From sequence record PX441839.1: a DNA stretch of 64,000 bases; one strand, 5' to 3'. The position numbers and the translations under genes are program-made. Under the pieces are notes generated by a model, which saw only the letters and a list, made by a program, of their open reading frames with translations, made no database searches and had not been told where the DNA came from. Source of the DNA: a phage. Of the stretch, positions 1,893-47,809 are shown in pieces. The first letter of the stretch is position 1, and each line of letters starts with the position of its first letter.

Positions 1893-2102
1893 ATGATTAA
1901 CGAAAAACAAATCAATGATATCCGTGACGAAGCCTATCAAGTTGCGATCCGTGACGGTTCCCGCGCCGCCTTTATCTTTGTTACGGATCTTTATCCAGAA
2001 CAGGCAGAAAATATATTGATGCAAGTTTCTGTTTTACTGGAAGCAACAAAGCGCACAAAGTTAAGCAACGGGATCGATAAGTTGGCAAAAACTTTAAAAT
2101 AA
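1893..2102 (+). CDS. hypothetical early protein (69 aa)
   Basis: First ATG downstream of the class III promoter, in frame with listed ORF 1665..2102. Confidence 0.45.
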   Translation: MINEKQINDIRDEAYQVAIRDGSRAAFIFVTDLYPEQAENILMQVSVLLEATKRTKLSNGIDKLAKTLK

Positions 2103-2104
2103 TT

Positions 2105-2143
2105 GTTGACTTTGATTTATGCCGCTGTATAATGGGCGGCATA
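2105..2143 (+). promoter_or_regulatory. sigma70-type early promoter (class II)
   Basis: TTGACT, 17 bp, TATAAT; palindrome atgccgc / gcggcat flanks the -10. Confidence 0.55.
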
Positions 2144-2185
2144 GGTAAGAGAAACAAACACAAACCAAGTAAACAAGGGTGTATC

Positions 2186-2674
2186 ATGAAAATTGAAAAA
2201 TTCAAATCACTGTCTAACTATTCTTCCGACTTGATTGACGGCGTGATCCAAGCTTTTGGGAGTGAAGAATATTTCCTGGAGAGTTTTAGAGATGTTGCTC
2301 GATACGGCGGCGACAAAGGGATCGGTTTCATTTACTACACGGAAACGGACCAATTCTGGAAAGATTTAGGCCCACAAATTAAAGAGATGGTAGAAATAGA
2401 CGCCGAATCTTTCACCGGATCAAATGACTATTACACCGTGTGCGAAATGCTGGCAGGGTTCAAAATCTCAAAACAAAATGATCTTTGTGTTGACAAGTGG
2501 TTAGAGTTCCTATATGGTATCAGCCAGGACGAAGAAAATAGTTTAGATGCCCTTTGTGATGAGTGGGATCAAAATATGGCCCGTTGGGTGCTGGGGGTGT
2601 ATGCCGTTGAACGTGTATCCCAAGATCTGGAAAGTTTAATTGATAACGGGGATATTGACGAGGAAGATGTTTAA
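2186..2674 (+). CDS. hypothetical early protein (162 aa)
   Basis: ATG at 2186 downstream of promoter; the listed start at 2132 lies inside the -10 element. Confidence 0.5.
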   Translation: MKIEKFKSLSNYSSDLIDGVIQAFGSEEYFLESFRDVARYGGDKGIGFIYYTETDQFWKDLGPQIKEMVEIDAESFTGSNDYYTVCEMLAGFKISKQNDLCVDKWLEFLYGISQDEENSLDALCDEWDQNMARWVLGVYAVERVSQDLESLIDNGDIDEEDV

Positions 2675-2985
2675 TGCTAACGTGGATCGTGTTGGCTTTA
2701 TGCGGGGTGGCGGCGATCTTTTGTGTCGCCACACATAAAAAGTACCTTTACAAAAAGGCTGAAAAAGTGTTCGGATACTTTGAGTATGAATATGATGGGG
2801 AGGTTTCCACATCGCGGGACTATGGACCTATGCTTGAAATTGATATGGTGGGCGCTATGCGACACCGCCAGGAGTGTGGCGCACACATAACGTTTAGTCA
2901 TTTTGGAACAGAAGATGAGATTTTCGACATCATAGACAAACGAGAATATTTGCGCCAACAACAAAAAACACGCCGTAAGTTTTAA
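2674..2985 (+). CDS. hypothetical membrane-anchored early protein (103 aa)
   Basis: Start overlaps the upstream stop (TAATG); hydrophobic N-terminal segment. Confidence 0.45.
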   Translation: MLTWIVLALCGVAAIFCVATHKKYLYKKAEKVFGYFEYEYDGEVSTSRDYGPMLEIDMVGAMRHRQECGAHITFSHFGTEDEIFDIIDKREYLRQQQKTRRKF

Positions 2986-3007
2986 TTGAGTAGAGAGAGG
3001 GTTTAAG

Positions 3008-3148
3008 ATGATTGCAACTAATACTAACCGTGACAAAATCAGCCATAAGAACAAATTAAGCTATGGTGAAGCAAAGGAGCGGATCACAGTATCAAAGGCC
3101 AATAAGCAACAACGCCGCAAAACGCGCTATAGCTGGGACAGCTTATAA
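3008..3148 (+). CDS. small basic protein (46 aa), not in the ORF track
   Basis: ATG at 3008 after GAGAGGG RBS; Arg/Lys-rich C-terminus; terminator hairpin follows at 3188-3214. Confidence 0.3.
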   Translation: MIATNTNRDKISHKNKLSYGEAKERITVSKANKQQRRKTRYSWDSL

Positions 3149-3187
3149 AGAGGGGAGGATTGTACCCACACTGATTTAAAACCTTAC

Positions 3188-3214
3188 AGGGGCCTTTATA
3201 GGCCCCTTATTTTT
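3188..3214 (+). terminator. rho-independent terminator
   Basis: aggggcc-tttata-ggcccct followed by a T-run. Confidence 0.5.
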
Positions 3215-3230
3215 GATAAGAGGTATCAAC

Positions 3231-3458
3231 ATGCAGAACATTTTAGGTTTAACTGATTTTATCCGCGCCCTTAAGGGCCGATCGTTGGGTTTTTCTGCCG
3301 TCTATATGGTGCCGGAGGGTAAGACATACAGCCAAGCCGTTAATGGCCTTATAGCAACGGCGGCAAGGGAAAACGTGAAGATCTCCACAGGCCAGATCCT
3401 AGCAGTTGATCCCGCCACATTTGCCACCATAGCGGCGATCAAAGTTACCGTAAAATAA
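3231..3458 (+). CDS. hypothetical early protein (75 aa)
   Basis: ATG at 3231 after AAGAGG RBS. Confidence 0.45.
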   Translation: MQNILGLTDFIRALKGRSLGFSAVYMVPEGKTYSQAVNGLIATAARENVKISTGQILAVDPATFATIAAIKVTVK

Positions 3459-3481
3459 TTTAAAATATTTTGTTTTTGGGT

Positions 3482-3510
3482 GTTGACAGGGGAAAGGGAT
3501 TGCCCCATAA
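3482..3510 (+). promoter_or_regulatory. sigma70-type early promoter (class III + leader hairpin)
   Basis: TTGACA, 17 bp with gggg..cccc, CATAAT; degenerate leader hairpin at 3515-3537. Confidence 0.55.
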
Positions 3511-3574
3511 TACACCACATAGAGCGACACAACGTCGCAAATTAAAACCAACTAACTAAGAGTGAGACAGTAAA

Positions 3575-4093
3575 ATGGGAAGCCCAAACTTTAAAACTTC
3601 AAACGTAAGATTAAACCTTGCATCTTTCCCGTTCAATGATTACAATGATGATGAGGAGATTCAAGAGCAAAACTATGAAGACCACAGTTATTGGGTAGAA
3701 CAGCAATATGAAGCAATGAAAGCGGTTATCGATGAGATTCCTACCCCTGATTTTTGGGATATCCACATCGAAAGCGGCTATCATGAAGGATTCCAGGTAT
3801 ACATTGAAAGTAATTGCGGCGATGATTATCAGGATCAAGTGTTCCAAGATCTTTACCGTTACAATGAGGCTTGCTTGCCGTCAGGTTATCCTTTAAATAT
3901 GCAAGACTTACCTTACGCAAGAAAGGGATCTGTAAACATTACCCCTTTTAATTTGAAATATGCTATTGAAAACGAGTACAAGGCGATCCATAATAAGATT
4001 TTAGCAGCAGCAAAGGAGGCTGGGATCGGTGAAGTGTTCGGATCTTCCTGGTGCTCAAATGTAGGACCTATTGAAAGTAAACTGATTAAATAA
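3575..4093 (+). CDS. hypothetical early protein (172 aa)
   Basis: ORF with promoter and leader upstream; acidic N-terminal region. Confidence 0.55.
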   Translation: MGSPNFKTSNVRLNLASFPFNDYNDDEEIQEQNYEDHSYWVEQQYEAMKAVIDEIPTPDFWDIHIESGYHEGFQVYIESNCGDDYQDQVFQDLYRYNEACLPSGYPLNMQDLPYARKGSVNITPFNLKYAIENEYKAIHNKILAAAKEAGIGEVFGSSWCSNVGPIESKLIK

Positions 4094-4096
4094 ATG

Positions 4097-4125
4097 TTGA
4101 CAGGGGCGGTAAAACGCCCCATAAT
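4097..4125 (+). promoter_or_regulatory. sigma70-type early promoter (class III)
   Basis: Identical to the promoter at 1834-1862. Confidence 0.6.
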
Positions 4126-4156
4126 GACAAGACCAAAACAAAAAGAGAAAGAAACA

Positions 4157-4309
4157 ATGAAACACTATCTAGTTAATATACCTGGTGTTGCGGGACCGCT
4201 CAAAGTTTACGGGTACGACGAAAAGGACGCAAGAAAGCGCCTACGTGATCGGGAAGGGTACAGAAAACGCCTACCCAATGGCACAAAACTTTATTTAAAA
4301 ACAGCTTGA
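4157..4309 (+). CDS. small basic protein (50 aa)
   Basis: First ATG after the promoter; listed ORF 4094..4309 begins inside the promoter. Confidence 0.4.
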   Translation: MKHYLVNIPGVAGPLKVYGYDEKDARKRLRDREGYRKRLPNGTKLYLKTA

Positions 4310-4345
4310 CGTTAGGTTATGCCGCCCCTATAATGGACGGCATAG
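4306..4345 (+). promoter_or_regulatory. sigma70-type early promoter (class II)
   Basis: TTGACG, 17 bp, TATAAT; palindrome atgccgcc / ggacggcat around the -10. Confidence 0.55.
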
Positions 4346-4375
4346 GCAAACGAAAGAAAACTAAGGTGATTCATT

Positions 4376-4648
4376 ATGAAAAGTAAACTGTCAAGAGAAG
4401 AAATTAGTCAAGTGTTATCTTTCAACATGCAAGACTGGAAAGAAAACGCCGACATTTGCGAAGCTCAAGATCTTAACGAAGAATTAACAATTGACGAAAT
4501 AAGCATTGTGTGCTCACCTGATTTTTATGATGAGTTGCACGAAAAAGATGATCTTTTTAACGTCCTGGAGAATAATTTCATGGATACCGATTTATGTGTG
4601 TACAGTATCGATACTTTTATTCTTATCCATAACATATACAACAACTAA
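4376..4648 (+). CDS. hypothetical acidic early protein (90 aa)
   Basis: ORF with promoter and RBS. Confidence 0.5.
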   Translation: MKSKLSREEISQVLSFNMQDWKENADICEAQDLNEELTIDEISIVCSPDFYDELHEKDDLFNVLENNFMDTDLCVYSIDTFILIHNIYNN

Positions 4649-4664
4649 AGGAAAGGGCCGCATT

Positions 4665-4955
4665 ATGTTTGAAGTATTCGCCGGAATGTGTTTTTATGGT
4701 GCTATGGCATTGCGTCAATGTGAAGATTACACCGTTGAAGTGTATCATGATCCCTTATCTTGCGAGATCGTGGCGCAAGATTACCGACAGGATAAACGCT
4801 GGCTTAATCCTCAGTGTATCCCATCGCCGGAGGTTGAACCAATGCCAGAAGGTGAAGCCCTGGAAGGTGAGGAGATCCGCGCCGTTGTTAGCTATATGCT
4901 AGATAACTTAAACGCCGATCAGCTTGTTTCTATGTATGCAGAAACAGAAAAATAA
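4665..4955 (+). CDS. hypothetical early protein (96 aa)
   Basis: ATG at 4665 after AAAGGAAAGGG RBS, in frame with listed ORF 4506..4955. Confidence 0.45.
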   Translation: MFEVFAGMCFYGAMALRQCEDYTVEVYHDPLSCEIVAQDYRQDKRWLNPQCIPSPEVEPMPEGEALEGEEIRAVVSYMLDNLNADQLVSMYAETEK

Positions 4956-4958
4956 TTG

Positions 4959-4999
4959 TTGACGTTGGTTTATGCCGTCGCATATAATAGACGGCATAG
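4959..4999 (+). promoter_or_regulatory. sigma70-type early promoter (class II)
   Basis: TTGACG, 18 bp, TATAAT; palindrome atgccgtcg / cgacggcat around the -10. Confidence 0.55.
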
Positions 5000-5031
5000 G
5001 CAAACGAAACAAACCATAAAAGGGTTACAAA

Positions 5032-5223
5032 ATGAAATCATCTTTACTTTTTTGCACTGTAAACATCATCATTGGTAACGGTTGCGGATCTCATGAATTT
5101 ATTAAGGGCAAGCCTTACAGCCTTTCATCGCTGCAAGCTGATTTTCGTTTATTGCCAGGACAGATCCGCAAATACTTTCGCGCCCCGTATCCAAAAGGAT
5201 ATAAAACAAATTTAGCAAAATAA
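5032..5223 (+). CDS. hypothetical early protein (63 aa)
   Basis: ORF with promoter and RBS. Confidence 0.4.
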   Translation: MKSSLLFCTVNIIIGNGCGSHEFIKGKPYSLSSLQADFRLLPGQIRKYFRAPYPKGYKTNLAK

Positions 5224-5227
5224 AGTA

Positions 5228-5256
5228 TTGACAAGGGGCACAGATTACCCCATAAT
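5228..5256 (+). promoter_or_regulatory. sigma70-type early promoter (class III + leader hairpin)
   Basis: TTGACA, 17 bp with gggg..cccc, CATAAT; leader hairpin at 5267-5285. Confidence 0.55.
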
Positions 5257-5307
5257 GTAACACATAGGGCGACACAACGTCGCCCACTAACAAAAGAGAT
5301 AAACAAA

Positions 5308-5592
5308 ATGATCAAGGCAAACAACTTTTTCTTCCTGGCTAACGTAGCGGATCACATCGTGGCAGAATTTAGAAACGTGGATGCAACAGCATTTATAAAA
5401 ATGCGTCATGAAAAAGACGTTTCAACGGATCGCGTAGAAATGGAAGTTACCCGCCACGGCAAAGAGTTTAAAATCAAATATCTGATTATCGTAAATAATG
5501 CAACATTTAGCGAGGGAACCAGCGAACCGATCCCGGACAATATGATCCAGCAAGTGATCGCCGCCGTTGCTAACGGATCAATTTTACCTTAA
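5308..5592 (+). CDS. hypothetical early protein (94 aa)
   Basis: ORF with promoter and leader. Confidence 0.5.
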   Translation: MIKANNFFFLANVADHIVAEFRNVDATAFIKMRHEKDVSTDRVEMEVTRHGKEFKIKYLIIVNNATFSEGTSEPIPDNMIQQVIAAVANGSILP

Positions 5593-5599
5593 AAAGTTG

Positions 5600-5640
5600 T
5601 TGACGTTGGTTTATGTGGGGCGTATAATTCCCCACATAGA
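5600..5640 (+). promoter_or_regulatory. sigma70-type early promoter (class II)
   Basis: TTGACG, 17 bp, TATAAT; palindrome atgtggggcg / ccccacat around the -10. Confidence 0.55.
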
Positions 5641-5661
5641 CAAACGAAACGAGAGATTAAA

Positions 5662-5868
5662 ATGTACACCATGATCGCACTTGCAGTATACTTCCTTTCA
5701 TCTTGCATTTACATTATGTTGGCGCTTGCCTTCCCTGGTGAGTTGGTTTATAGTTTTATGGGCGTAGATCTTGTTTTATGGGCGGTCGCCACGCCACTGA
5801 TGATCGTTCCCGCCGTGATCATTTATTGGATTGAAGAAAAGATTACTGATTTGCTAAAAGGCTATTGA
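5662..5868 (+). CDS. small integral membrane protein (68 aa)
   Basis: ORF with two predicted hydrophobic helices. Confidence 0.45.
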   Translation: MYTMIALAVYFLSSCIYIMLALAFPGELVYSFMGVDLVLWAVATPLMIVPAVIIYWIEEKITDLLKGY

Positions 5869-5926
5869 CAAGGCAACCACAAACAAAGATAATAGCCTCA
5901 TTGAAAACAACTAGTAAGGATTTACG

Positions 5927-6079
5927 ATGTATAAGCTGTTAACCTGGGAACATGAGACAAGCCAACCGATTAGCCGTGACTTTTTCGATTTGTGCGCCGC
6001 TTACCGACTGGCAAAAGGCGGTTACTATAAAGCCCAAATCATTGATGAAAATAATGTTGTACTTTATGAGTTTAAATGA
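5927..6079 (+). CDS. small protein (50 aa), not in the ORF track
   Basis: ATG at 5927 after AAGGA RBS; followed by hairpin gcgccccgaaaggggcg at 6087-6103. Confidence 0.3.
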   Translation: MYKLLTWEHETSQPISRDFFDLCAAYRLAKGGYYKAQIIDENNVVLYEFK

Positions 6080-6133
6080 TTAACAAGCGCCCCGAAAGGG
6101 GCGATAATTACCACACAAAACAGGAGACAGTAA

Positions 6134-6376
6134 ATGAAAGTTCAAAATGTATTGATTTGTGAAGATTGCGCCTTGTACCTTAATACAGGTGAGCTTCCCG
6201 CTGATACCACACCAGAAGATGATCAGGACATCATCCACGGGGCGGAATATCTAGATATAACTTACAAATTTGGGAGTGTAGGCACTAGTTTAGGCTTTTC
6301 AATAAAACCGTGTGAATGTTGCGGATCTCGCCTGGCCGGAGATCGCTATGAATATGATAATCTTGGCTTAAAATAG
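6134..6376 (+). CDS. small zinc-ribbon protein (80 aa)
   Basis: CEDC ... CECCG Cys pairs; GGAGA RBS. Confidence 0.5.
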   Translation: MKVQNVLICEDCALYLNTGELPADTTPEDDQDIIHGAEYLDITYKFGSVGTSLGFSIKPCECCGSRLAGDRYEYDNLGLK

Positions 6377-6536
6377 TAGTTGACTACAACGAAAGAAAAG
6401 AATACTATGTATCACATGAAAGGCAAACAGCCTAAACCAACAAAGAGAGAAACAAAATGAGCGTAGTATTCTTAATTTCAGTTTTCGTAGCTATCGCCGC
6501 TTCAACCGCAATTTGTGTAAAATTAGGATGGTAAGA

Positions 6537-6932
6537 ATGGAAAGTGTAAAAGATACCCTGTTAAATGCTTTTTTGTCCGGCGCTACTGAGGCGTTATTGT
6601 TCGCAGAATCCGCAGAAGATGCAAACGGGGAGACAATCGAACATTTGAACGGTTACGAATTAAGCAATGCAAGCAAAGCACTGTTAAAACTGGAATCTGT
6701 TAAATTCTTAGATTTAGGAAACAACTTAATAGAAAAAGCTATTGACAGTAGCGGCGATTTATACGATTATACTCAAGCGGGGCGGGATTTTTGGTTTACT
6801 CGTCAAGGTCACGGCGTAGGATTCTGGGATCGGGGTCTTGGGGAAGTTGGGGACCAGCTAACAGAACTTTCAAAATGTTTCGGTGAGCGCTGGATCTCTT
6901 TGAATGAAAATAATTTTGTAGAGGTTGAATGA
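6537..6932 (+). CDS. hypothetical protein (about 131 aa; start uncertain)
   Basis: In frame with listed ORF 6513..6932; ATG at 6537 has an AGGA RBS. Confidence 0.45.
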   Translation: MESVKDTLLNAFLSGATEALLFAESAEDANGETIEHLNGYELSNASKALLKLESVKFLDLGNNLIEKAIDSSGDLYDYTQAGRDFWFTRQGHGVGFWDRGLGEVGDQLTELSKCFGERWISLNENNFVEVE

Positions 6933-7276
6933 TGGCTGAAAAATTCTCAATAACTCAAAAGACAATTTACACCATTAAAAGCAAACACGGCGTTATTGAG
7001 TGTGAAGGGATAGCAGGACTAGAAAAGCACGTAGAGGAAACATTAGGCGCTTTTGTTGACAACATGCACGGCAACCATACAGGACTAAGATCAAAAGATC
7101 GGATCAATGATTATGATTACCTGTTAGAGAATCGCCAGGACTTAGAAACAATTTTCGCCCTTATGGATGCCGTTAAGGATCTGAAAAATCCACCATCGCC
7201 GGATCACGATTGTGATGATTATTATTGTAACCGTTGCGGATCTGGATCGGCCATTGAATACGTAGGAAATAATTAA
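6929..7276 (+). CDS. hypothetical protein with C-terminal Cys cluster (115 aa)
   Basis: Start overlaps the upstream stop; CDDYYCNRCG motif. Confidence 0.5.
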   Translation: MMAEKFSITQKTIYTIKSKHGVIECEGIAGLEKHVEETLGAFVDNMHGNHTGLRSKDRINDYDYLLENRQDLETIFALMDAVKDLKNPPSPDHDCDDYYCNRCGSGSAIEYVGNN

Positions 7277-37795: not shown

Positions 37796-38904
37796 TATAT
37801 TGCTCCCACTCTCTTAAGTACACTTGAAAGGGTTGTTGGGTCATTATATTCCCTCTTCATGTATACCGATTGAAAAATAACAGATGCCCACTGACCTGCT
37901 GTAAACTTCCGATCAATACCCATGTGGTCTGTGAAATGAACACCATCAGGGAACCACATCTTATACTGATTGATTATTGTTGTCCACATTTCTTTTTCCG
38001 TTTTACACCCAGCAAGGAGCTTAAATGCGGACACTTCCCCAAATTTAATATCGAAGTTCTGATACGGCTTGACGTTATCTGCACTATCCCCAAACAACAT
38101 CTGATAGCCAAAGAACAGTTGGCCCCATCCTTTAACCTTGTTGTTGTCCATCCAAATCTCACCCATAGATTCATCGATCAACCAACACTCAGGGTGTTTC
38201 CAGGTTCTCTCGTTTGAGTCTCGCATGGAGTTGAACAGAAGAGACGGAACTTGAACTTGGTCTTTATCGAAGGATGCTACAATGTGACTGAACTTTCCAG
38301 TCTTTTTGTAATTCATATACCCCTTGTACCCAAGTATGGACAGGTAATCGTCTGCCTCGATACCGTCAATAACTACCGCCCCGTACTTACGAACAACATA
38401 ATCCCGAGTCTCTTGCAGTAGGAGTGGTCGAATAGAATCTTCTCGGTTCCCCTTATAGATCTCAGGTGTAGGCAATGCCAATCTGAAATTACCACTTCCG
38501 CCCAAAACCCCGTGACCATTTGGACATTCAAGATGTTCAAGAATTGCGTTAATCTTTATCTTCAAAAGGTGTAGGCAGTTTTCAACTGGTTCTGGTGTTT
38601 GCTTATCAAGGATTTCGAAATCATCCCTTGTCCAAGGTACAAATTTACGACCGGAAGCTAAACACTGAGCCTCTCGGTTAATATTCTGATCCTTTAACCA
38701 CCCACCAACAACATTCTTCTGACGACCCCAGAACTCGGTTTTATTTTTAAATTCCTTCTCAGCACCAGACTTCTTGTGTCGGGCAATGATAGTTCTTTTT
38801 TCTGCACCTGCCGCCGCAACATAACATGTTTGGTCAAGATCAAGTGCAACAACCACATCGTCTGTTACAATACTTTTAAGATCCTTCACTACGGGATAAC
38901 CCAT
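37795..38904 (-). CDS. 5'-3' exonuclease / flap endonuclease (T4 RNase H / T5 D15 family)
   Basis: VIDGIEADDYLS and FGDSADNVKPY match the FEN EADD and GDxSDN motifs. Confidence 0.6.
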   Translation of the reverse strand: MGYPVVKDLKSIVTDDVVVALDLDQTCYVAAAGAEKRTIIARHKKSGAEKEFKNKTEFWGRQKNVVGGWLKDQNINREAQCLASGRKFVPWTRDDFEILDKQTPEPVENCLHLLKIKINAILEHLECPNGHGVLGGSGNFRLALPTPEIYKGNREDSIRPLLLQETRDYVVRKYGAVVIDGIEADDYLSILGYKGYMNYKKTGKFSHIVASFDKDQVQVPSLLFNSMRDSNERTWKHPECWLIDESMGEIWMDNNKVKGWGQLFFGYQMLFGDSADNVKPYQNFDIKFGEVSAFKLLAGCKTEKEMWTTIINQYKMWFPDGVHFTDHMGIDRKFTAGQWASVIFQSVYMKREYNDPTTLSSVLKRVGAI

Positions 38905-39074
38905 TACTGACTCCCCCTCTGTTTCTTGATAAAATGTTCCAGCACAGAAATAACCTTGTTGGCGTCCTCTATGCTTTTTATGTATACAACGTCAACCTGA
39001 TCCTCATCTCTCTCCACAATCGAAACGTAATCCTTTCCTACCCCATTCTTCCGTATTTCTGCCTTAATGATCAC
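38904..39074 (-). CDS. small protein (about 56 aa, GTG start), not in the ORF track
   Basis: GTG at 39074 preceded by AGGGGG RBS; stop overlaps the FEN start (TAATG). Confidence 0.3.
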   Translation of the reverse strand: MIIKAEIRKNGVGKDYVSIVERDEDQVDVVYIKSIEDANKVISVLEHFIKKQRGSQ

Positions 39075-39255
39075 TTCTCAACCCCCTTGCAACCTCTATA
39101 AACTCACTCGCTTTTCGGATGATCTCCTCAGCTTCCACAATGCAACTTATAAACACCGTGTCAGGGTTATCACCATAGTCTTGGGATATGCAAAGATAAA
39201 CATCATCCTTTCCGCAAACCTTTGTCTTAACCAACTCTACCTCTGTATAACTCAA
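39064..39255 (-). CDS. hypothetical protein (63 aa)
   Basis: Six-frame ORF. Confidence 0.4.
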   Translation of the reverse strand: MSYTEVELVKTKVCGKDDVYLCISQDYGDNPDTVFISCIVEAEEIIRKASEFIEVARGLRSDH

Positions 39256-39755
39256 AATGCATCCCCCATCTCATCTTCTGGTGCGGTAGGACGCTTGAAC
39301 TTAAAGTCAGGCCCCATGTACTCTGATAGATAGTCGATGTTCAGTGACCACTCCTGCTGGCTACGCCTACGCCACAATTCAAACTCACCTTTCATGTAGG
39401 AGATGGCCTGATCTCTAGTGATCCCGTTAACCTTCATGAACTGGCGCAGCATACGTTCAACTTTCCCGTTTCTTTCTGCCAAACCTGGGTGGTGAAATTC
39501 ATGACATGGTGGACAAAGACTCATTATCCCAACAAGTCTTACTTCACCATTTGCAAACTCCCAATCCTCGTGTGCTTCCACTGGGTGTTTTCTGCCGTTA
39601 CCGCCTTGTCCACCACAAATCTGACATTTGTAATTATTTTCTTGATAGCACTTTCTTCTGACCTTGTCCCACTGGGATGACGTAAGATAAGACCTAAGGT
39701 TGTTTCCCCACGCAGTCCGTGGGATAAGGCAAATTTTATGCTTTATGTTCACCAC
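39252..39755 (-). CDS. putative HNH endonuclease / zinc-binding protein
   Basis: CQICGG ... HPVEAHEDWEF ... LCPPCHEFHH is HNH-like. Confidence 0.45.
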   Translation of the reverse strand: MVNIKHKICLIPRTAWGNNLRSYLTSSQWDKVRRKCYQENNYKCQICGGQGGNGRKHPVEAHEDWEFANGEVRLVGIMSLCPPCHEFHHPGLAERNGKVERMLRQFMKVNGITRDQAISYMKGEFELWRRRSQQEWSLNIDYLSEYMGPDFKFKRPTAPEDEMGDAF

Positions 39756-41574: not shown

Positions 41575-41928
41575 TTACCAATCCACGTTACGGCCCATCA
41601 GGATATCCAGTTCGTTCAGTTGCTCAATCTGGTCTTCCAGAGCGGCGCGTTTCTTTTCTGCGGCATCTTGCTTATCGTATTCACCATTGATCAGTGTACG
41701 CAGGAATTTAGGGTCAATGTTAAGGTCTTCTTTGGTGATTGCCAAGATATCTTTCAGATCCCGTGCTGCATCTTTCTGGCGACGAATCGCATCAACACCC
41801 TCCTGAACAATGTTAGCCAGGCGCTTGCGAGTTTCGATGTCGGAAGGCAGGGTGTTGAGTAATTCCACTTTTAATTTAGCCATTGTAGTATCTCCTTTCT
41901 CAGTTAATGTGCGAGTATTATTACTCAA
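41575..41928 (-). CDS. hypothetical coiled-coil protein (117 aa)
   Basis: Six-frame ORF. Confidence 0.5.
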   Translation of the reverse strand: MSNNTRTLTEKGDTTMAKLKVELLNTLPSDIETRKRLANIVQEGVDAIRRQKDAARDLKDILAITKEDLNIDPKFLRTLINGEYDKQDAAEKKRAALEDQIEQLNELDILMGRNVDW

Positions 41929-41959
41929 TATGGAACTTCTGTCAACTACTTTTTAAAAC

Positions 41960-42136
41960 TTATCGGACAAACATTCTACCTTGCTCATAGTATCCGTTAC
42001 GAATACCCCTCGGAGCAGAAATAGACTTTACAGCAGTAGCACCGCAATTGCAAGGTGCATTTTCTCTCTCAGAGATCTTTCGGTTCTTATCAAACTCTGC
42101 CCCACATTTTGGACATTTGTAAGAGTATGTTGGCAC
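41960..42136 (-). CDS. FmdB-family zinc-ribbon protein (58 aa, GTG start), not in the ORF track
   Basis: Translation (V/M)PTYSYKCPKCGAEFDKNRKISERENAPCNCGAT matches the FmdB pattern MPxYEYxCxxCG...E...CxxCG. Confidence 0.45.
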   Translation of the reverse strand: MPTYSYKCPKCGAEFDKNRKISERENAPCNCGATAVKSISAPRGIRNGYYEQGRMFVR

Positions 42137-42952
42137 TTAATATTTCTCCAGATTCGGTTCAAAGAAGGTGCAAGGCTTCATGATCTTACCTTTATCATCC
42201 TTAAACACAACACGGTTTCCGAACACCTCTCCACGGATACCTTTGTATCTACCTGCATGGTGCTTATTAAGAGATTCTGCCTCGATACTGATCATGTCAT
42301 CAACAGAAAGACCTCCCTTAACAACCCCATATCGAGAAGAAATGAATCCCTCTTTGAATTGTTCAATAGTTGGAATCTTTGACTCATTGGATGACAGAAC
42401 TTCCTCCAATACCGCCTCAATATCCAAATCCATATTGTGGAGAATTGTGCATATCGCACGGAAAGCGAAATGACTCTCCCCGAAACTAATGATCGATGAG
42501 GACAAAATACGAACAAGATCAACCAGAGAGTCGTGTGCCCACGTACCTGGGTCAAGGGCGATCTCTGAGTAATCAACGGCAGCATCAATTGCATCTTCAA
42601 TATTATCAAGAATCTCTGCGTCAACCTTAAGCTTCTTAAGGAAATCCCAGTAAGATACCACAACAAAAAGATCTGCGAGCGCGTCGATGGTTTCTTTCCG
42701 ATCTTTATTCAAAAGAGCATCTTTAAGCTCGTTAAGTTCCTCAACACAGAACGATTTTTGACGATCGATCATCTCTTCACTGTAGTCGTGGTTTTTTCGA
42801 GCGGTTAAGTTAAACTCGCGGACTCGTGAAAAAGCACTTTTTAAAATGTCTCGTTTTTCTTTTTTGGCAAAAGATTCAATAAAAGAATATTCTTGTGTCA
42901 CTTGATTCTCCTCTTCTTTGAAAGTAGGGCCATTATACATGACCAATTCCAT
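42137..42952 (-). CDS. hypothetical protein, possible MazG-like helical domain (271 aa)
   Basis: ELNELKDAL ... ETIDALADLFVVV resembles the MazG EExxE / ELGD pattern, weakly. Confidence 0.4.
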   Translation of the reverse strand: MELVMYNGPTFKEEENQVTQEYSFIESFAKKEKRDILKSAFSRVREFNLTARKNHDYSEEMIDRQKSFCVEELNELKDALLNKDRKETIDALADLFVVVSYWDFLKKLKVDAEILDNIEDAIDAAVDYSEIALDPGTWAHDSLVDLVRILSSSIISFGESHFAFRAICTILHNMDLDIEAVLEEVLSSNESKIPTIEQFKEGFISSRYGVVKGGLSVDDMISIEAESLNKHHAGRYKGIRGEVFGNRVVFKDDKGKIMKPCTFFEPNLEKY

Positions 42953-42955
42953 ATG

Positions 42956-43429
42956 TCAACGATCTTCGTAAACTTTCTTAGCTTCATCTCTCCGCAAGCT
43001 GTTACGGGAATCCCTCAATGCCTCCTTTTTCTTCTGCTCATCCTTCATACGGGCACTCACTATACTTCGAACGGTGTAACCGACAAGCTTTTCCTCTGTC
43101 CCATTCATCCAGTCGAGATCACCAACAAATATGAAGCTATCATCCCACCAATGTTGAATCCAAGTGTATTTCCCAGTTACAGGGTCGTACAAGGTGAAGT
43201 CGGTATAGCAACGACTATCTTCTTCAATCTTAACCTGGTCTTCATCACCCTGTTTGCAGTAAAAACCATCATGGATCTCGATACTACCACTCTTCACCAA
43301 TTTCACAATCTTTTTTGTAGGCTCCTTTATCTGTAACCAATCGTGGAACCATGCCATCCCACAAAACAAGCTGAACAATACAAAAACGAAAACCAGAAAC
43401 GGATCAGACATTATCATTCTCCTCTGCAA
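42956..43429 (-). CDS. membrane-anchored protein (157 aa)
   Basis: N-terminal transmembrane helix. Confidence 0.5.
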   Translation of the reverse strand: MQRRMIMSDPFLVFVFVLFSLFCGMAWFHDWLQIKEPTKKIVKLVKSGSIEIHDGFYCKQGDEDQVKIEEDSRCYTDFTLYDPVTGKYTWIQHWWDDSFIFVGDLDWMNGTEEKLVGYTVRSIVSARMKDEQKKKEALRDSRNSLRRDEAKKVYEDR

Positions 43430-44822
43430 TAGTCATTAACAGGTCGAGTAAAGAGTCAGAGGCTGCGATAATCTCAGGAAGAGAGTTTGCCTGGCTCTTG
43501 TCTCTACGGATCTCTACAAACTTATAGTTCAGTCGAGGAAGGAACAGTGATGCAAGCTCCTTGGTCTCAGACTTCGTAATGTCGTTAGCCTTTCCTGTTA
43601 CAATCTGCCCAATAAAATATTCCCGAGGTTTCTTACGCAGCGCGTCTGTCAAACCGGAGCCAATACCAACCTCTAAAAGTCCATCACGGGATCGGCAAAT
43701 AAGAGCACCGACCAAGTTGGGGTTCTTCTTGTGTGGAATAACATCAACAACTTCGACCTCAAAATCAAACTCATTCTTAAGTTTGATCCCTTTCTTTGTC
43801 TTATTGTCTCCCCAAGGCATAGCTGCCTCTTTGATAACAGTACCTTCTTTCTTCTGCTTACGCATCTCCACAAAGTGTTCGATGGCTTCCCGCATATTGC
43901 TAATGCGACGTCCAGTGATCATCCTGAAATTATCAGGATTGCCAACACTGTTCACAACAATATGGGCAACCAGTCGGCGGTCTTCATAACGAGCTTTGCT
44001 CTTTCTGGCGACATACTCGTCCATGTCTACGCAATCCCAAACCACCAGGCGAACAAGTGCAGGATCGATACTCTCAGGATCTTGGTTAAGGTATCCATTT
44101 CCGATCTCCCGTGGTTGTACTCCGTTAGGATATGAATTGTCGATAACCAAGGCTTCTCCATGAAGAACATAAGGTCCATTCTCACGGGCCTTAAACTTAA
44201 GGCCATTCTCCACGTCAGGTACGCACCGGAAATTTAATTCCTTGCCAGATCGTGATCGATAAATCACCTGTTCAGGCCACACCATAATGTCCGCATACAA
44301 CCCATCCATTTTCTCATCTGAAAATGCACCATCGTAGTTAAACTTACGAAGCAGATCTGGTTTGAATAGCGTGTAGCTTTGATAAGGTGGCTCAGTAATA
44401 AGGTCCTTCCAAACCTTGTTTGTAAGCGTTGTCTGGATACCACACTCAAGATCACGGTTAATAACCTTTACCAGGGTCTCAGGTTCTTCGCATAAACCAA
44501 CCAACTGATCCATGTATGCCTTAGCATCATCTCCGGTATACCGACGACACGCAATGTTGTCAATTAAGTCCTTAATCGAGTCGATCAATGGTCGATTACC
44601 ACAAACCCCGTTTGATGAACAGACACTCTTGAAATTCCGAACAAAAAAGTTCAACTCTTTCGAGTAGGCTACACGAAAAACTTCACGAAGTACATCGTTG
44701 TCTTCATTCTCACGAAGAATGGCCTCTTTCTCTTTTGTAGATCGGGTGTTGGACAGCTTGTTTAAAATTTCAGTTACAGTCATTCGTATCTCCTTTTGGT
44801 GGAATATTGCCGCTGTTGTCAA
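43404..44822 (-). CDS. ATP-dependent DNA ligase (an RNA ligase is not excluded)
   Basis: 472 aa; KMDGLY (motif I KxDG), EGTVIK (motif IV) and a lysine-rich motif V region. Confidence 0.55.
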   Translation of the reverse strand: MTTAAIFHQKEIRMTVTEILNKLSNTRSTKEKEAILRENEDNDVLREVFRVAYSKELNFFVRNFKSVCSSNGVCGNRPLIDSIKDLIDNIACRRYTGDDAKAYMDQLVGLCEEPETLVKVINRDLECGIQTTLTNKVWKDLITEPPYQSYTLFKPDLLRKFNYDGAFSDEKMDGLYADIMVWPEQVIYRSRSGKELNFRCVPDVENGLKFKARENGPYVLHGEALVIDNSYPNGVQPREIGNGYLNQDPESIDPALVRLVVWDCVDMDEYVARKSKARYEDRRLVAHIVVNSVGNPDNFRMITGRRISNMREAIEHFVEMRKQKKEGTVIKEAAMPWGDNKTKKGIKLKNEFDFEVEVVDVIPHKKNPNLVGALICRSRDGLLEVGIGSGLTDALRKKPREYFIGQIVTGKANDITKSETKELASLFLPRLNYKFVEIRRDKSQANSLPEIIAASDSLLDLLMTIAEENDNV

Positions 44823-44961
44823 TTGTTACAAAATCTCCCCTTGTTGTCCAGCAAATTTCACAAACCTCCGCACACAAGGTTATACTCCCATACATGCCCA
44901 CACTCTGCTTCGTATAAGTAAAACTCTCTGTATCTTCCTCACAGATATAACAATATGTCAT
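44770..44961 (-). CDS. small Cys-rich protein (63 aa)
   Basis: CYICEE ... CAEVCEIC. Confidence 0.35.
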   Translation of the reverse strand: MTYCYICEEDTESFTYTKQSVGMYGSITLCAEVCEICWTTRGDFVTIDNSGNIPPKGDTNDCN

Positions 44962-45062
44962 TAACCTCTCCTCAGTGCAGTAACTGTAAGTATAGCAACT
45001 ATCGCACCACCTAATGTAAGAAACATTGCCAAAAACTTGACAGCATCAACAACTATTTCCAT
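44961..45062 (-). CDS. small hydrophobic peptide (33 aa), not in the ORF track
   Basis: MEIVVDAVKFLAMFLTLGGAIVAILTVTALRRG; stop overlaps the next start (TAATG). Confidence 0.3.
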   Translation of the reverse strand: MEIVVDAVKFLAMFLTLGGAIVAILTVTALRRG

Positions 45063-47392: not shown

Positions 47393-47809
47393 ATGATTTT
47401 TCAGTTTGGTAACAGTTCAGTGGAGATTTCAGAAGATAGCTTCATGCAGATTCCTACCCACTGGGTAATGAACTTAAGCGGAGATGACTTAAAGAGGGCT
47501 TGCCTTCTTCGGTGGAGGTTCACATTCTTTGCTGATACGGGACTTTTCCCAGATGCATCCCTATGCTTCTATGAGTCTCAGCAGTCATTGTGTGACCTGT
47601 TTGGGATGTCAAAGTCTAGCCGGACAAAGGTGAGTGCTTGTCTAAAGAGGTTGGAGGCTGCTGGGGTAATATTTATACGCAGGGGCAAGTCAAGGGAGAG
47701 TGGGGAGTTGAAGCCACGGCATTACATTGTCCCCAATGACTCACTGCTTATTGAGAAGTACGGTATACGACCAGACTTGTGGGATGATAAGGAAATAATT
47801 GAAAAGTAA
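47393..47809 (+). CDS. putative HTH DNA-binding protein (138 aa)
   Basis: ATG at 47393 after GGAGGTGAGG RBS; helix-turn-helix-like segment GMSKSSRTKVSACLKRLEAAGVI. Confidence 0.45.
   Translation: MIFQFGNSSVEISEDSFMQIPTHWVMNLSGDDLKRACLLRWRFTFFADTGLFPDASLCFYESQQSLCDLFGMSKSSRTKVSACLKRLEAAGVIFIRRGKSRESGELKPRHYIVPNDSLLIEKYGIRPDLWDDKEIIEK

Follow-up and report, generated by a model that had tools for sequence, protein, structure and literature searches.

Five short genes in a Vequintavirinae phage, including a zinc ribbon homologous to T4 gp39.2

Five short genes and their setting

The window analysed here, a stretch of 64,000 nucleotides (record PX441839.1), belongs to a myophage of the Vequintavirinae. 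Its 38-46 kb stretch is 96.7% identical over the full length to Salmonella phage SSBI34 (MZ520832, Vequintavirinae, 141 kb), and after SSBI34 the nearest relatives are Certrevirus phages of Cronobacter, Pectobacterium and Enterobacter. A sequence-only reading of the window had picked out five short open reading frames (ORFs), among them an FmdB-type zinc ribbon, and an ORF check found every one of them exactly where it had been placed. Three of these ORFs lie on the minus strand, as do all their neighbours (41960-42136, 38904-39074 and 44961-45062), and two lie on the plus strand (3008-3148 and 5927-6079). They are given below together with a paralogue of one of them (p63) and the genes and promoter-like sites around the zinc-ribbon gene.

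3008-3148, plus strand: b46, a very basic protein of 46 aa (pI 10.5); GAGAGGG before the start; last gene before a terminator at 3188-3207
5927-6079, plus strand: d50, a DUF7170 protein of 50 aa (pI 5.6); AAGGA before the start
38904-39074, minus strand: p56, a clade-restricted protein of 56 aa; GTG start, with GGGGG 7 nt before the GTG
39064-39255, minus strand: p63, a tandem paralogue of p56, 63 aa; TTG start overlapping the stop of the HNH gene (TTGA), with GGGGG before the TTG
41575-41928, minus strand: DsbA-like regulator ORF, listed as 117 aa with a TTG start; over-extended, the true start being ATG 41883
41917-41945, minus strand: promoter-like site TTGACA-17-AATAAT (11/12), directly beyond the Zn58 stop
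41960-42136, minus strand: Zn58, an FmdB-family zinc ribbon of 58 aa with a GTG start, identified from ORF, HMM and conservation
42137-42952, minus strand: MazG-like protein (all-alpha NTP pyrophosphohydrolase), 271 aa, directly upstream of Zn58; start at 42952 or 42940
42932-42959, minus strand: promoter-like site TTGACA-16-TATAAT, a 12/12 match to the sigma-70 consensus, heading the MazG-like/Zn58 pair
44961-45062, minus strand: tm33, a single-helix membrane micro-protein of 33 aa ending RR(G); GRAVY 1.48; found in 25 records

Short ORFs are abundant by chance, and a listing of 4 kb returned 53 of them with at least 25 aa, so the existence of an ORF proves nothing by itself and other evidence is needed. 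Such evidence is available from comparison with other phages. In-frame tblastn matches were found in 1091 phage records for Zn58, 452 for d50, 26 for b46 and 25 for tm33, and for these four ORFs the substitutions are biased toward the third codon position, with dN/dS between 0.05 and 0.43. In addition, the short ORFs carry translation signals, in the form of Shine-Dalgarno motifs lying 7-9 nt ahead of the start or of overlaps between stop and start (TAAGTG, TAATG), and promoter-like sites and terminators fit their positions sensibly. Conservation of frame and start in relatives, proposed earlier as a check, was seen for all five. The description of the two plus-strand products as small basic proteins suits 3008-3148, whose product has a pI of 10.5, whereas that of 5927-6079 is acidic (pI 5.6). 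The five short ORFs are real, conserved and ordinary small early phage genes.

The value of these observations lies in annotation. The annotation of SSBI34 is sparse (229 features) and has no feature where Zn58, p56 and tm33, the three minus-strand ORFs of the five, are situated, while both plus-strand ORFs are called there as hypothetical proteins; thus three of the five genes, the zinc ribbon included, are missing from the closest published genome. The tm33 gene is missing as well from the RefSeq records of PBES 02, CR9 and phiTE and from the GenBank record of F1M1E. None of the five genes is new, and zinc-ribbon orthologues are already named in RefSeq for CR3, CR9, PBES 02, phiTE and T4. 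The outcome is the correction of an annotation gap rather than a discovery, with the zinc ribbon as a further member of a known and already annotated family, and the findings, although real, are ordinary and will not surprise a phage specialist.

The zinc ribbon, its neighbours and its relatives

Zn58 (MPTYSYKCPKCGAEFDKNRKISERENAPCNCGATAVKSISAPRGIRNGYYEQGRMFVR) begins MPTYSYKCPKC and continues to CNCG. In its layout, residues 1-40 make up a four-cysteine ribbon, to which a flexible tail (APRGIxNGYYEQGRMFVR) is joined; the predicted zinc ligands are C8, C11, C29 and C31, and the predicted flexible C-terminal tail is APRGIRNGYYEQGRMFVR. We infer zinc binding from the four conserved cysteines and the ribbon-like core of the AlphaFold2 (AF2) model. 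The assignment to the FmdB type in the sequence-only reading was correct, as the protein scores above the curated thresholds of both relevant models: 44.5 bits against Pfam PF09723 (Zn_ribbon_8; cut-off 34.4, E 1.5e-11), aligned from profile position 1, and 51.3 bits against NCBIfam TIGR02605 (CxxC_CxxC_SSSS; 'FmdB family zinc ribbon protein'; cut-off 31.3, E 8.9e-14).

Conservation of the gene extends well beyond its immediate relatives. Among the 1091 phage records in which tblastn matches Zn58 in frame, 1085 cover at least 80% of the query. Nucleotide differences from SSBI34, F1M1E, CR9, phiTE and A7_1 fall mostly at the third codon position (for example 8/4/25 over the three positions), and dN/dS across five Vequintavirinae genomes is 0.05-0.2 at pS 0.6-0.7 (Nei-Gojobori), which shows purifying selection; no frameshifted copy was seen in the relatives' genomes that were examined. 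The start codon is GTG in the window and in SSBI34. More distant relatives carry ATG at exactly that codon, and the alignment to the family profile begins at residue 1, so the GTG start that had been proposed for this gene is right; a GGAG ribosome-binding site (RBS) lies 9 nt upstream of it. Zn58 is almost certainly a real gene and a member of the FmdB/gp39.2 family.

Directly upstream of Zn58 lies the MazG-like gene, which matches PF01503 with 26.6 bits (cut-off 21.3) and phrog_671 ('nucleotide pyrophosphohydrolase') with E 4e-24. At the junction (TAAGTG) the TAA of the MazG-like gene abuts the GTG of Zn58, which suggests translational coupling. The 12/12 promoter-like site at the head of the pair overlaps both candidate ATGs of the MazG-like ORF (42952 and 42940); transcription from it would begin inside that ORF, so either the start call or the promoter call must be wrong. 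The 11/12 site just after the Zn58 stop indicates that Zn58 is the last gene of its unit and that the next gene starts at ATG 41883. The MazG-like gene and Zn58 are a two-gene unit, with Zn58 last, bounded by sigma-70 consensus promoter-like sites.

The gene that follows encodes, from ATG 41883, a DsbA-like product of about 102 aa with weak similarity to T4 DsbA. The TTG start of the listed 117-aa ORF was rejected, because the promoter-like site, the GGAG RBS, which fits ATG 41883, and the phrog_639 alignment, which begins at residue 16 of the 117-aa ORF, all favour the ATG.

Most of the 1091 records matched by Zn58 are T4-like phages, and the matching gene there is 39.2, so labelled in JS98 and present in T4 itself. 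Aligned over 54 of its 58 residues, Zn58 shares 43% identity with intact T4 gp39.2 (E 4e-15); with the gp39.2 homologue of Krischvirus GEC-3S it shares 51% (E 3e-16). Since the T4 and Krischvirus proteins are themselves only 44% identical to each other, Zn58 falls within the family's own spread. In the reciprocal search, T4 gp39.2 matches the window only at 42136-41984. Zn58 is homologous over its full length, and reciprocally, to gp39.2 of T4 and of Krischvirus, and the genome record of phiTE already notes the similarity of its own zinc ribbon to RB49 gp39.2.

The T4 reference record itself (NC_000866; L003 2703-2840) carries a 39.2 gene frameshifted by one extra T, with a truncated product of 45 aa; alignment with a second T4 record (MZ375356; L016 301-477) shows an intact 39.2 of 58 aa there, which is also the product length stated in a published account (PMC5153855).

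Zn58 and T4 gp39.2 have in common a length of 58 aa, an N-terminal MPxYxYxC, a KISER motif, the second cysteine knuckle and a tail of the form AP..G(Y/F)Y(D/E), and both genes lie in early regions. C8, C29 and C31 are invariant in the alignment. The proteins differ in cysteine spacing, the first knuckle being Cx4C in T4 and CxxC in Zn58 and the second CxxC in T4 and CxC in Zn58. They also differ in phage family (Straboviridae for T4, Vequintavirinae for the window) and in gene neighbourhood. In T4 the gene has goF and gene 39 as neighbours, whereas Zn58 has the MazG-like and DsbA-like genes. T4-like phages carry the gene beside gene 39, which encodes the large subunit of topoisomerase II. Zn58 does not share this position; the synteny belongs to Straboviridae genomes and does not characterise the family of proteins.

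When 1.84 billion representative proteins were searched exhaustively with Zn58, 140 clusters matched at E of 1e-3 or below. Among 144 related proteins, the phage-type tail AP..GYY(D/E) was found in 18, with a median length of 59.5 aa, and the cellular-type tail KGSGFY in 9, with a median of 106 aa. Zn58, with its compact size (about 58 aa) and its AP..G(Y/F)Y(D/E) tail in place of KGSGFY, has the features of the gp39.2 subgroup. It shares the zinc-ribbon core with the cellular FmdB family (PF09723/TIGR02605) and passes both models; the cellular members typical of the representative search exceed the phage subgroup of about 58 aa in length and have a KGSGFY..TDY tail followed by a low-complexity extension. 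The CxC second knuckle was considered as an unusual trait and rejected, as the CxCG variant occurs in 73 of the 144 related proteins.

The closest named relatives are the Certrevirus proteins of CR3, CR9, PBES 02 and phiTE, which RefSeq calls 'FmdB-like transcriptional regulator'. These are orthologues of Zn58, with 78-88% identity and the same length, and their genes occupy the same place, behind a MazG-like gene and close to the one for DNA ligase. They differ from the window in starting with ATG instead of GTG, in having a MazG-like neighbour of 120 aa that is unrelated by BLAST to the 271-aa one of the window and, in PBES 02 and phiTE, in having an HNH homing endonuclease gene inserted downstream of the ribbon gene.

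Structure prediction adds little beyond a zinc ribbon with a floppy tail. A first AF2 model of Zn58, built with 6 close sequences, was poor (mean pLDDT 58), and Foldseek with this low-confidence model found nothing in the PDB better than E 0.4. With 28 sequences the mean pLDDT rose to 72, the predicted four-stranded ribbon core (residues 1-40) reaching about 80 and the tail about 55. A comparison with predicted viral structures ranked phage FmdB proteins first, and the predicted model of T4 Q01434, the truncated 39.2 product, superposes on the Zn58 model with 2.0 A over 45 residues. Neither a PDB sequence search nor Foldseek with the low-confidence model found a solved structure for the family, and the PDB sequence matches to Zn58 were discarded as spurious, being repeats of the C2H2 motif 'YKCPECGKSF'.

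Proposed role of the zinc ribbon and the alternatives

T4 gp39.2 is the sole experimentally studied member of the FmdB zinc-ribbon family. Homologues of the protein from RB49 and RB43 are reportedly active, in work by Ang and Georgopoulos from 2012 (Genetics). Published accounts portray gp39.2, also named NwgI, as a modulator with a subtle effect, moving GroEL into an open, co-chaperonin-binding form, and report that a T4 39.2 deletion mutant is blocked on specific groEL mutant hosts (PMC5153855; PMC4396842). The current name, 'FmdB-like transcriptional regulator', hides this sole piece of experimental knowledge.

The homology to gp39.2 suggests that the most likely role of Zn58 is early tuning of a host chaperone and not control of transcription. 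Soon after infection, Zn58 would act on the host GroEL/GroES machine and would shift GroEL toward the open state that accepts a co-chaperonin; GroEL-dependent phage proteins might then fold efficiently in those hosts or conditions in which the chaperonin is limiting. Taken as a whole, we think it probable that Zn58 is a genuine early gene encoding a compact FmdB ribbon of the gp39.2 type that acts on host GroEL/GroES. The narrower statement that Zn58 modulates GroEL, which is drawn from homology, is in our judgement evenly poised between true and false. What counts against it is that the argument runs through homology to a 58-residue protein at 43-51% identity, that the structure model reaches no more than moderate confidence, and that the synteny seen in T4 is not kept. 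A tblastn search with approximate GroES and T4 gp31 queries detected no phage co-chaperonin (gp31/GroES-like) in the 64-kb window, which is less than half of the genome; a weak match at 47666-47800 was set aside, since the 142-aa ORF around it does not resemble GroES. Should Zn58 share the GroEL role, the tuning of a chaperonin by a protein of 58 residues would no longer be confined to T4-like phages and would reach the rV5-like Vequintavirinae, a group employed in phage therapy and biocontrol.

No evidence was found for the earlier suggestion that small proteins of this kind serve as anti-defence factors, and the one experimental precedent for the zinc ribbon, GroEL modulation by T4 gp39.2, is a case of host manipulation.

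The name in the databases states a different role, namely that of a nucleic-acid-binding transcriptional regulator; early in infection Zn58 would then redirect transcription of the host or of the phage. The RefSeq name and the PHROG labels (phrog_1076, phrog_385) both say so, the protein is basic (pI 9.5), and the next gene downstream encodes a DsbA-like regulator. Zinc ribbons also occur in RNA polymerase subunits and in TFIIS-type factors, and Zn58 has weak, sub-threshold matches to RNA polymerase subunit P. These matches, however, are far below the cut-offs, as are those to TFIIS and Brz; no DNA- or RNA-polymerase-binding family in Pfam or NCBIfam reaches threshold for Zn58, and no fold match from Foldseek in the PDB was significant with the first low-confidence model. 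Moreover, the label itself goes back to the genomic context of fmdB in Methylophilus and is not known to rest on a DNA-binding assay. The only family member to have been studied acts on GroEL (PMC5153855; PMC4396842). A regulator of transcription is, in our view, an unlikely identity for Zn58.

A second alternative starts from the gene next door. A MazG-like gene lies directly upstream of the ribbon gene, abutting or overlapping it, in three lineages: Certrevirus, the lineage of the window and Escherichia phage A7_1, and Karamvirus (42137-42952 in the window; L005 3639-4001, L004 2679-3014 and L009 3848-4585 in the loci compared). The Certrevirus protein has 120 aa and matches PF03819 with 33.8 bits, and those of the window and A7_1 have 271 and 245 aa and belong to PF01503, the window protein being 37% identical to A7_1 gp80; that of the T4-like Karamvirus Pet-CM3-4 has 111 aa and scores 14.1 bits, below the Pfam cut-off of 22. 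BLASTP among the MazG-like proteins of the three lineages found no match from one lineage to another.

This recurrence can be read as a two-gene module, in which the ribbon would be a subunit, regulator or substrate-specificity factor of the MazG-like enzyme and the GroEL effect would be secondary or specific to the T4 type. The arrangement recurs in three lineages whose enzymes are mutually undetectable by BLASTP, and consensus promoter-like sites flank the pair in the window. If such a module were real, the true job of the ribbon would be tied to nucleotide or alarmone hydrolysis, for example in countering nucleotide-based host signalling, and the GroEL effect of T4 would be only part of the story. 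Against it, the ribbon occurs with no MazG neighbour beside it in T4, in Krischvirus, in the T4-like Klebsiella phage vB_KpnM_Tauntaun_ER47, in a Pseudotevenvirus and in a Streptomyces phage, and T4 gp39.2 works when expressed alone, according to PMC5153855. In addition, the MazG assignment in Pet-CM3-4 is below the cut-off, and adjacency in compact early regions of phages can be simply inherited. We consider the module reading improbable. The same holds for its wider form, in which ribbon and MazG-like gene would be a recurrent, translationally coupled module whose enzyme was replaced by another or became unrecognisable through divergence in Certrevirus, SSBI34/A7_1 and Karamvirus, and in which, separately, tm33 and b46 could be host-takeover effectors. 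The MazG pairing stands as an unexplained lead, with a low probability of being functional, and it offers a testable approach to the role of FmdB-type ribbons.

The other small genes

The p56 gene, the weakest case among the five, had been read as coupled to the flap endonuclease gene, and its TAA indeed overlaps the ATG of that gene (TAATG). By tblastn it matched only SSBI34. A homologue is nevertheless annotated in Escherichia phage A7_1, where gp64 (59 aa), between the flap exonuclease and HNH endonuclease genes, is syntenic with p56 and 38% identical to it (pairwise E 3e-10); PBES 02 has no gene at this site. The adjacent p63 is 36% identical to p56 (E 3e-6), and its three substitutions relative to SSBI34 are all synonymous. 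In a search of 5.8 billion proteins, a two-sequence query found no homologue of p56 and p63, and a three-sequence query showed the family as one cluster, of the A7_1 type.

These observations bear on the last alternative, in which the short ORFs, or some of them, would be chance frames in intergenic DNA from which no protein is made. In its favour, short ORFs are plentiful at random, as the count over 4 kb illustrates, the annotators of SSBI34 passed over three of the five, and p56 and p63 have no homologues beyond a small clade and only 4 informative substitutions. Against it, Zn58 and d50 match curated HMMs, third-position bias and low dN/dS mark Zn58, tm33, b46 and d50 across genomes at pS 0.5-0.9, starts and stops are conserved, RBS or coupling signals are present, and p56 retains 38% identity to the product of a gene annotated at the syntenic place in A7_1. 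The idea is already refuted for four of the ORFs and very improbable overall.

HNH homing endonuclease genes occupy differing sites in this neighbourhood: in the window one lies beside p63 (39252-39755, minus strand), and in PBES 02 and phiTE one follows the ribbon gene (compare L005 4174-4677), which suggests active homing around these small genes.

The tm33 gene overlaps the gene upstream of it by 10 nt and the ORF downstream by TAATG. Its differences from homologues are distributed 14/5/23 over the three codon positions, and the fewest changes at the second position are what would be expected if hydrophobicity is preserved. In PBES 02, CR9, phiTE and F1M1E a homologue sits in an unannotated gap before the ligase gene (L005 1680-1772, L006 6062-6154, L007 6190-6279 and L008 6036-6128) and continues for 27 codons across the DNA ligase start in an alternative frame. 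A possible likeness between this tail of the Certrevirus homologues and the C-terminus of a 63-aa cysteine-rich ORF of the window was dropped, as the stretch is an alternative frame over the ligase start. The cysteine-rich ORF itself (44770-44961, minus strand; CYIC...CEIC) lies between tm33 and the ligase gene and overlaps both; it has no Pfam or PHROG match and is a hypothetical protein in SSBI34.

On the plus strand, b46 is conserved in about 26 Vequintavirinae records; its KANKQQRRKTRY motif is invariant, its dN/dS is 0.2-0.4, and the terminator that follows the gene is strong. Searches of Pfam, PHROG and NCBIfam placed it in no known family. The d50 protein, on the other hand, is a full-length member of a described family with no notable difference from it: residues 1-50 align to positions 1-51 of the 52 in PF23776 (DUF7170; 65.9 bits, cut-off 27, E 3.5e-18), and phrog_4653 is matched with E 4.9e-24. 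It is found in 452 phage records from several families, with dN/dS of about 0.13. With its own promoter-like site (5865-5893) and a hairpin (6088-6103) at its flanks, d50 looks like a monocistronic unit.

The surrounding region (2000-7000) contains 12 sigma-70 promoter-like sites on the plus strand with at least 10 of 12 matches, and 23 such sites in all, where 11.9 are expected. Promoter-like sites and hairpin terminators frame many small genes there, and the region looks like a typical early host-takeover region.
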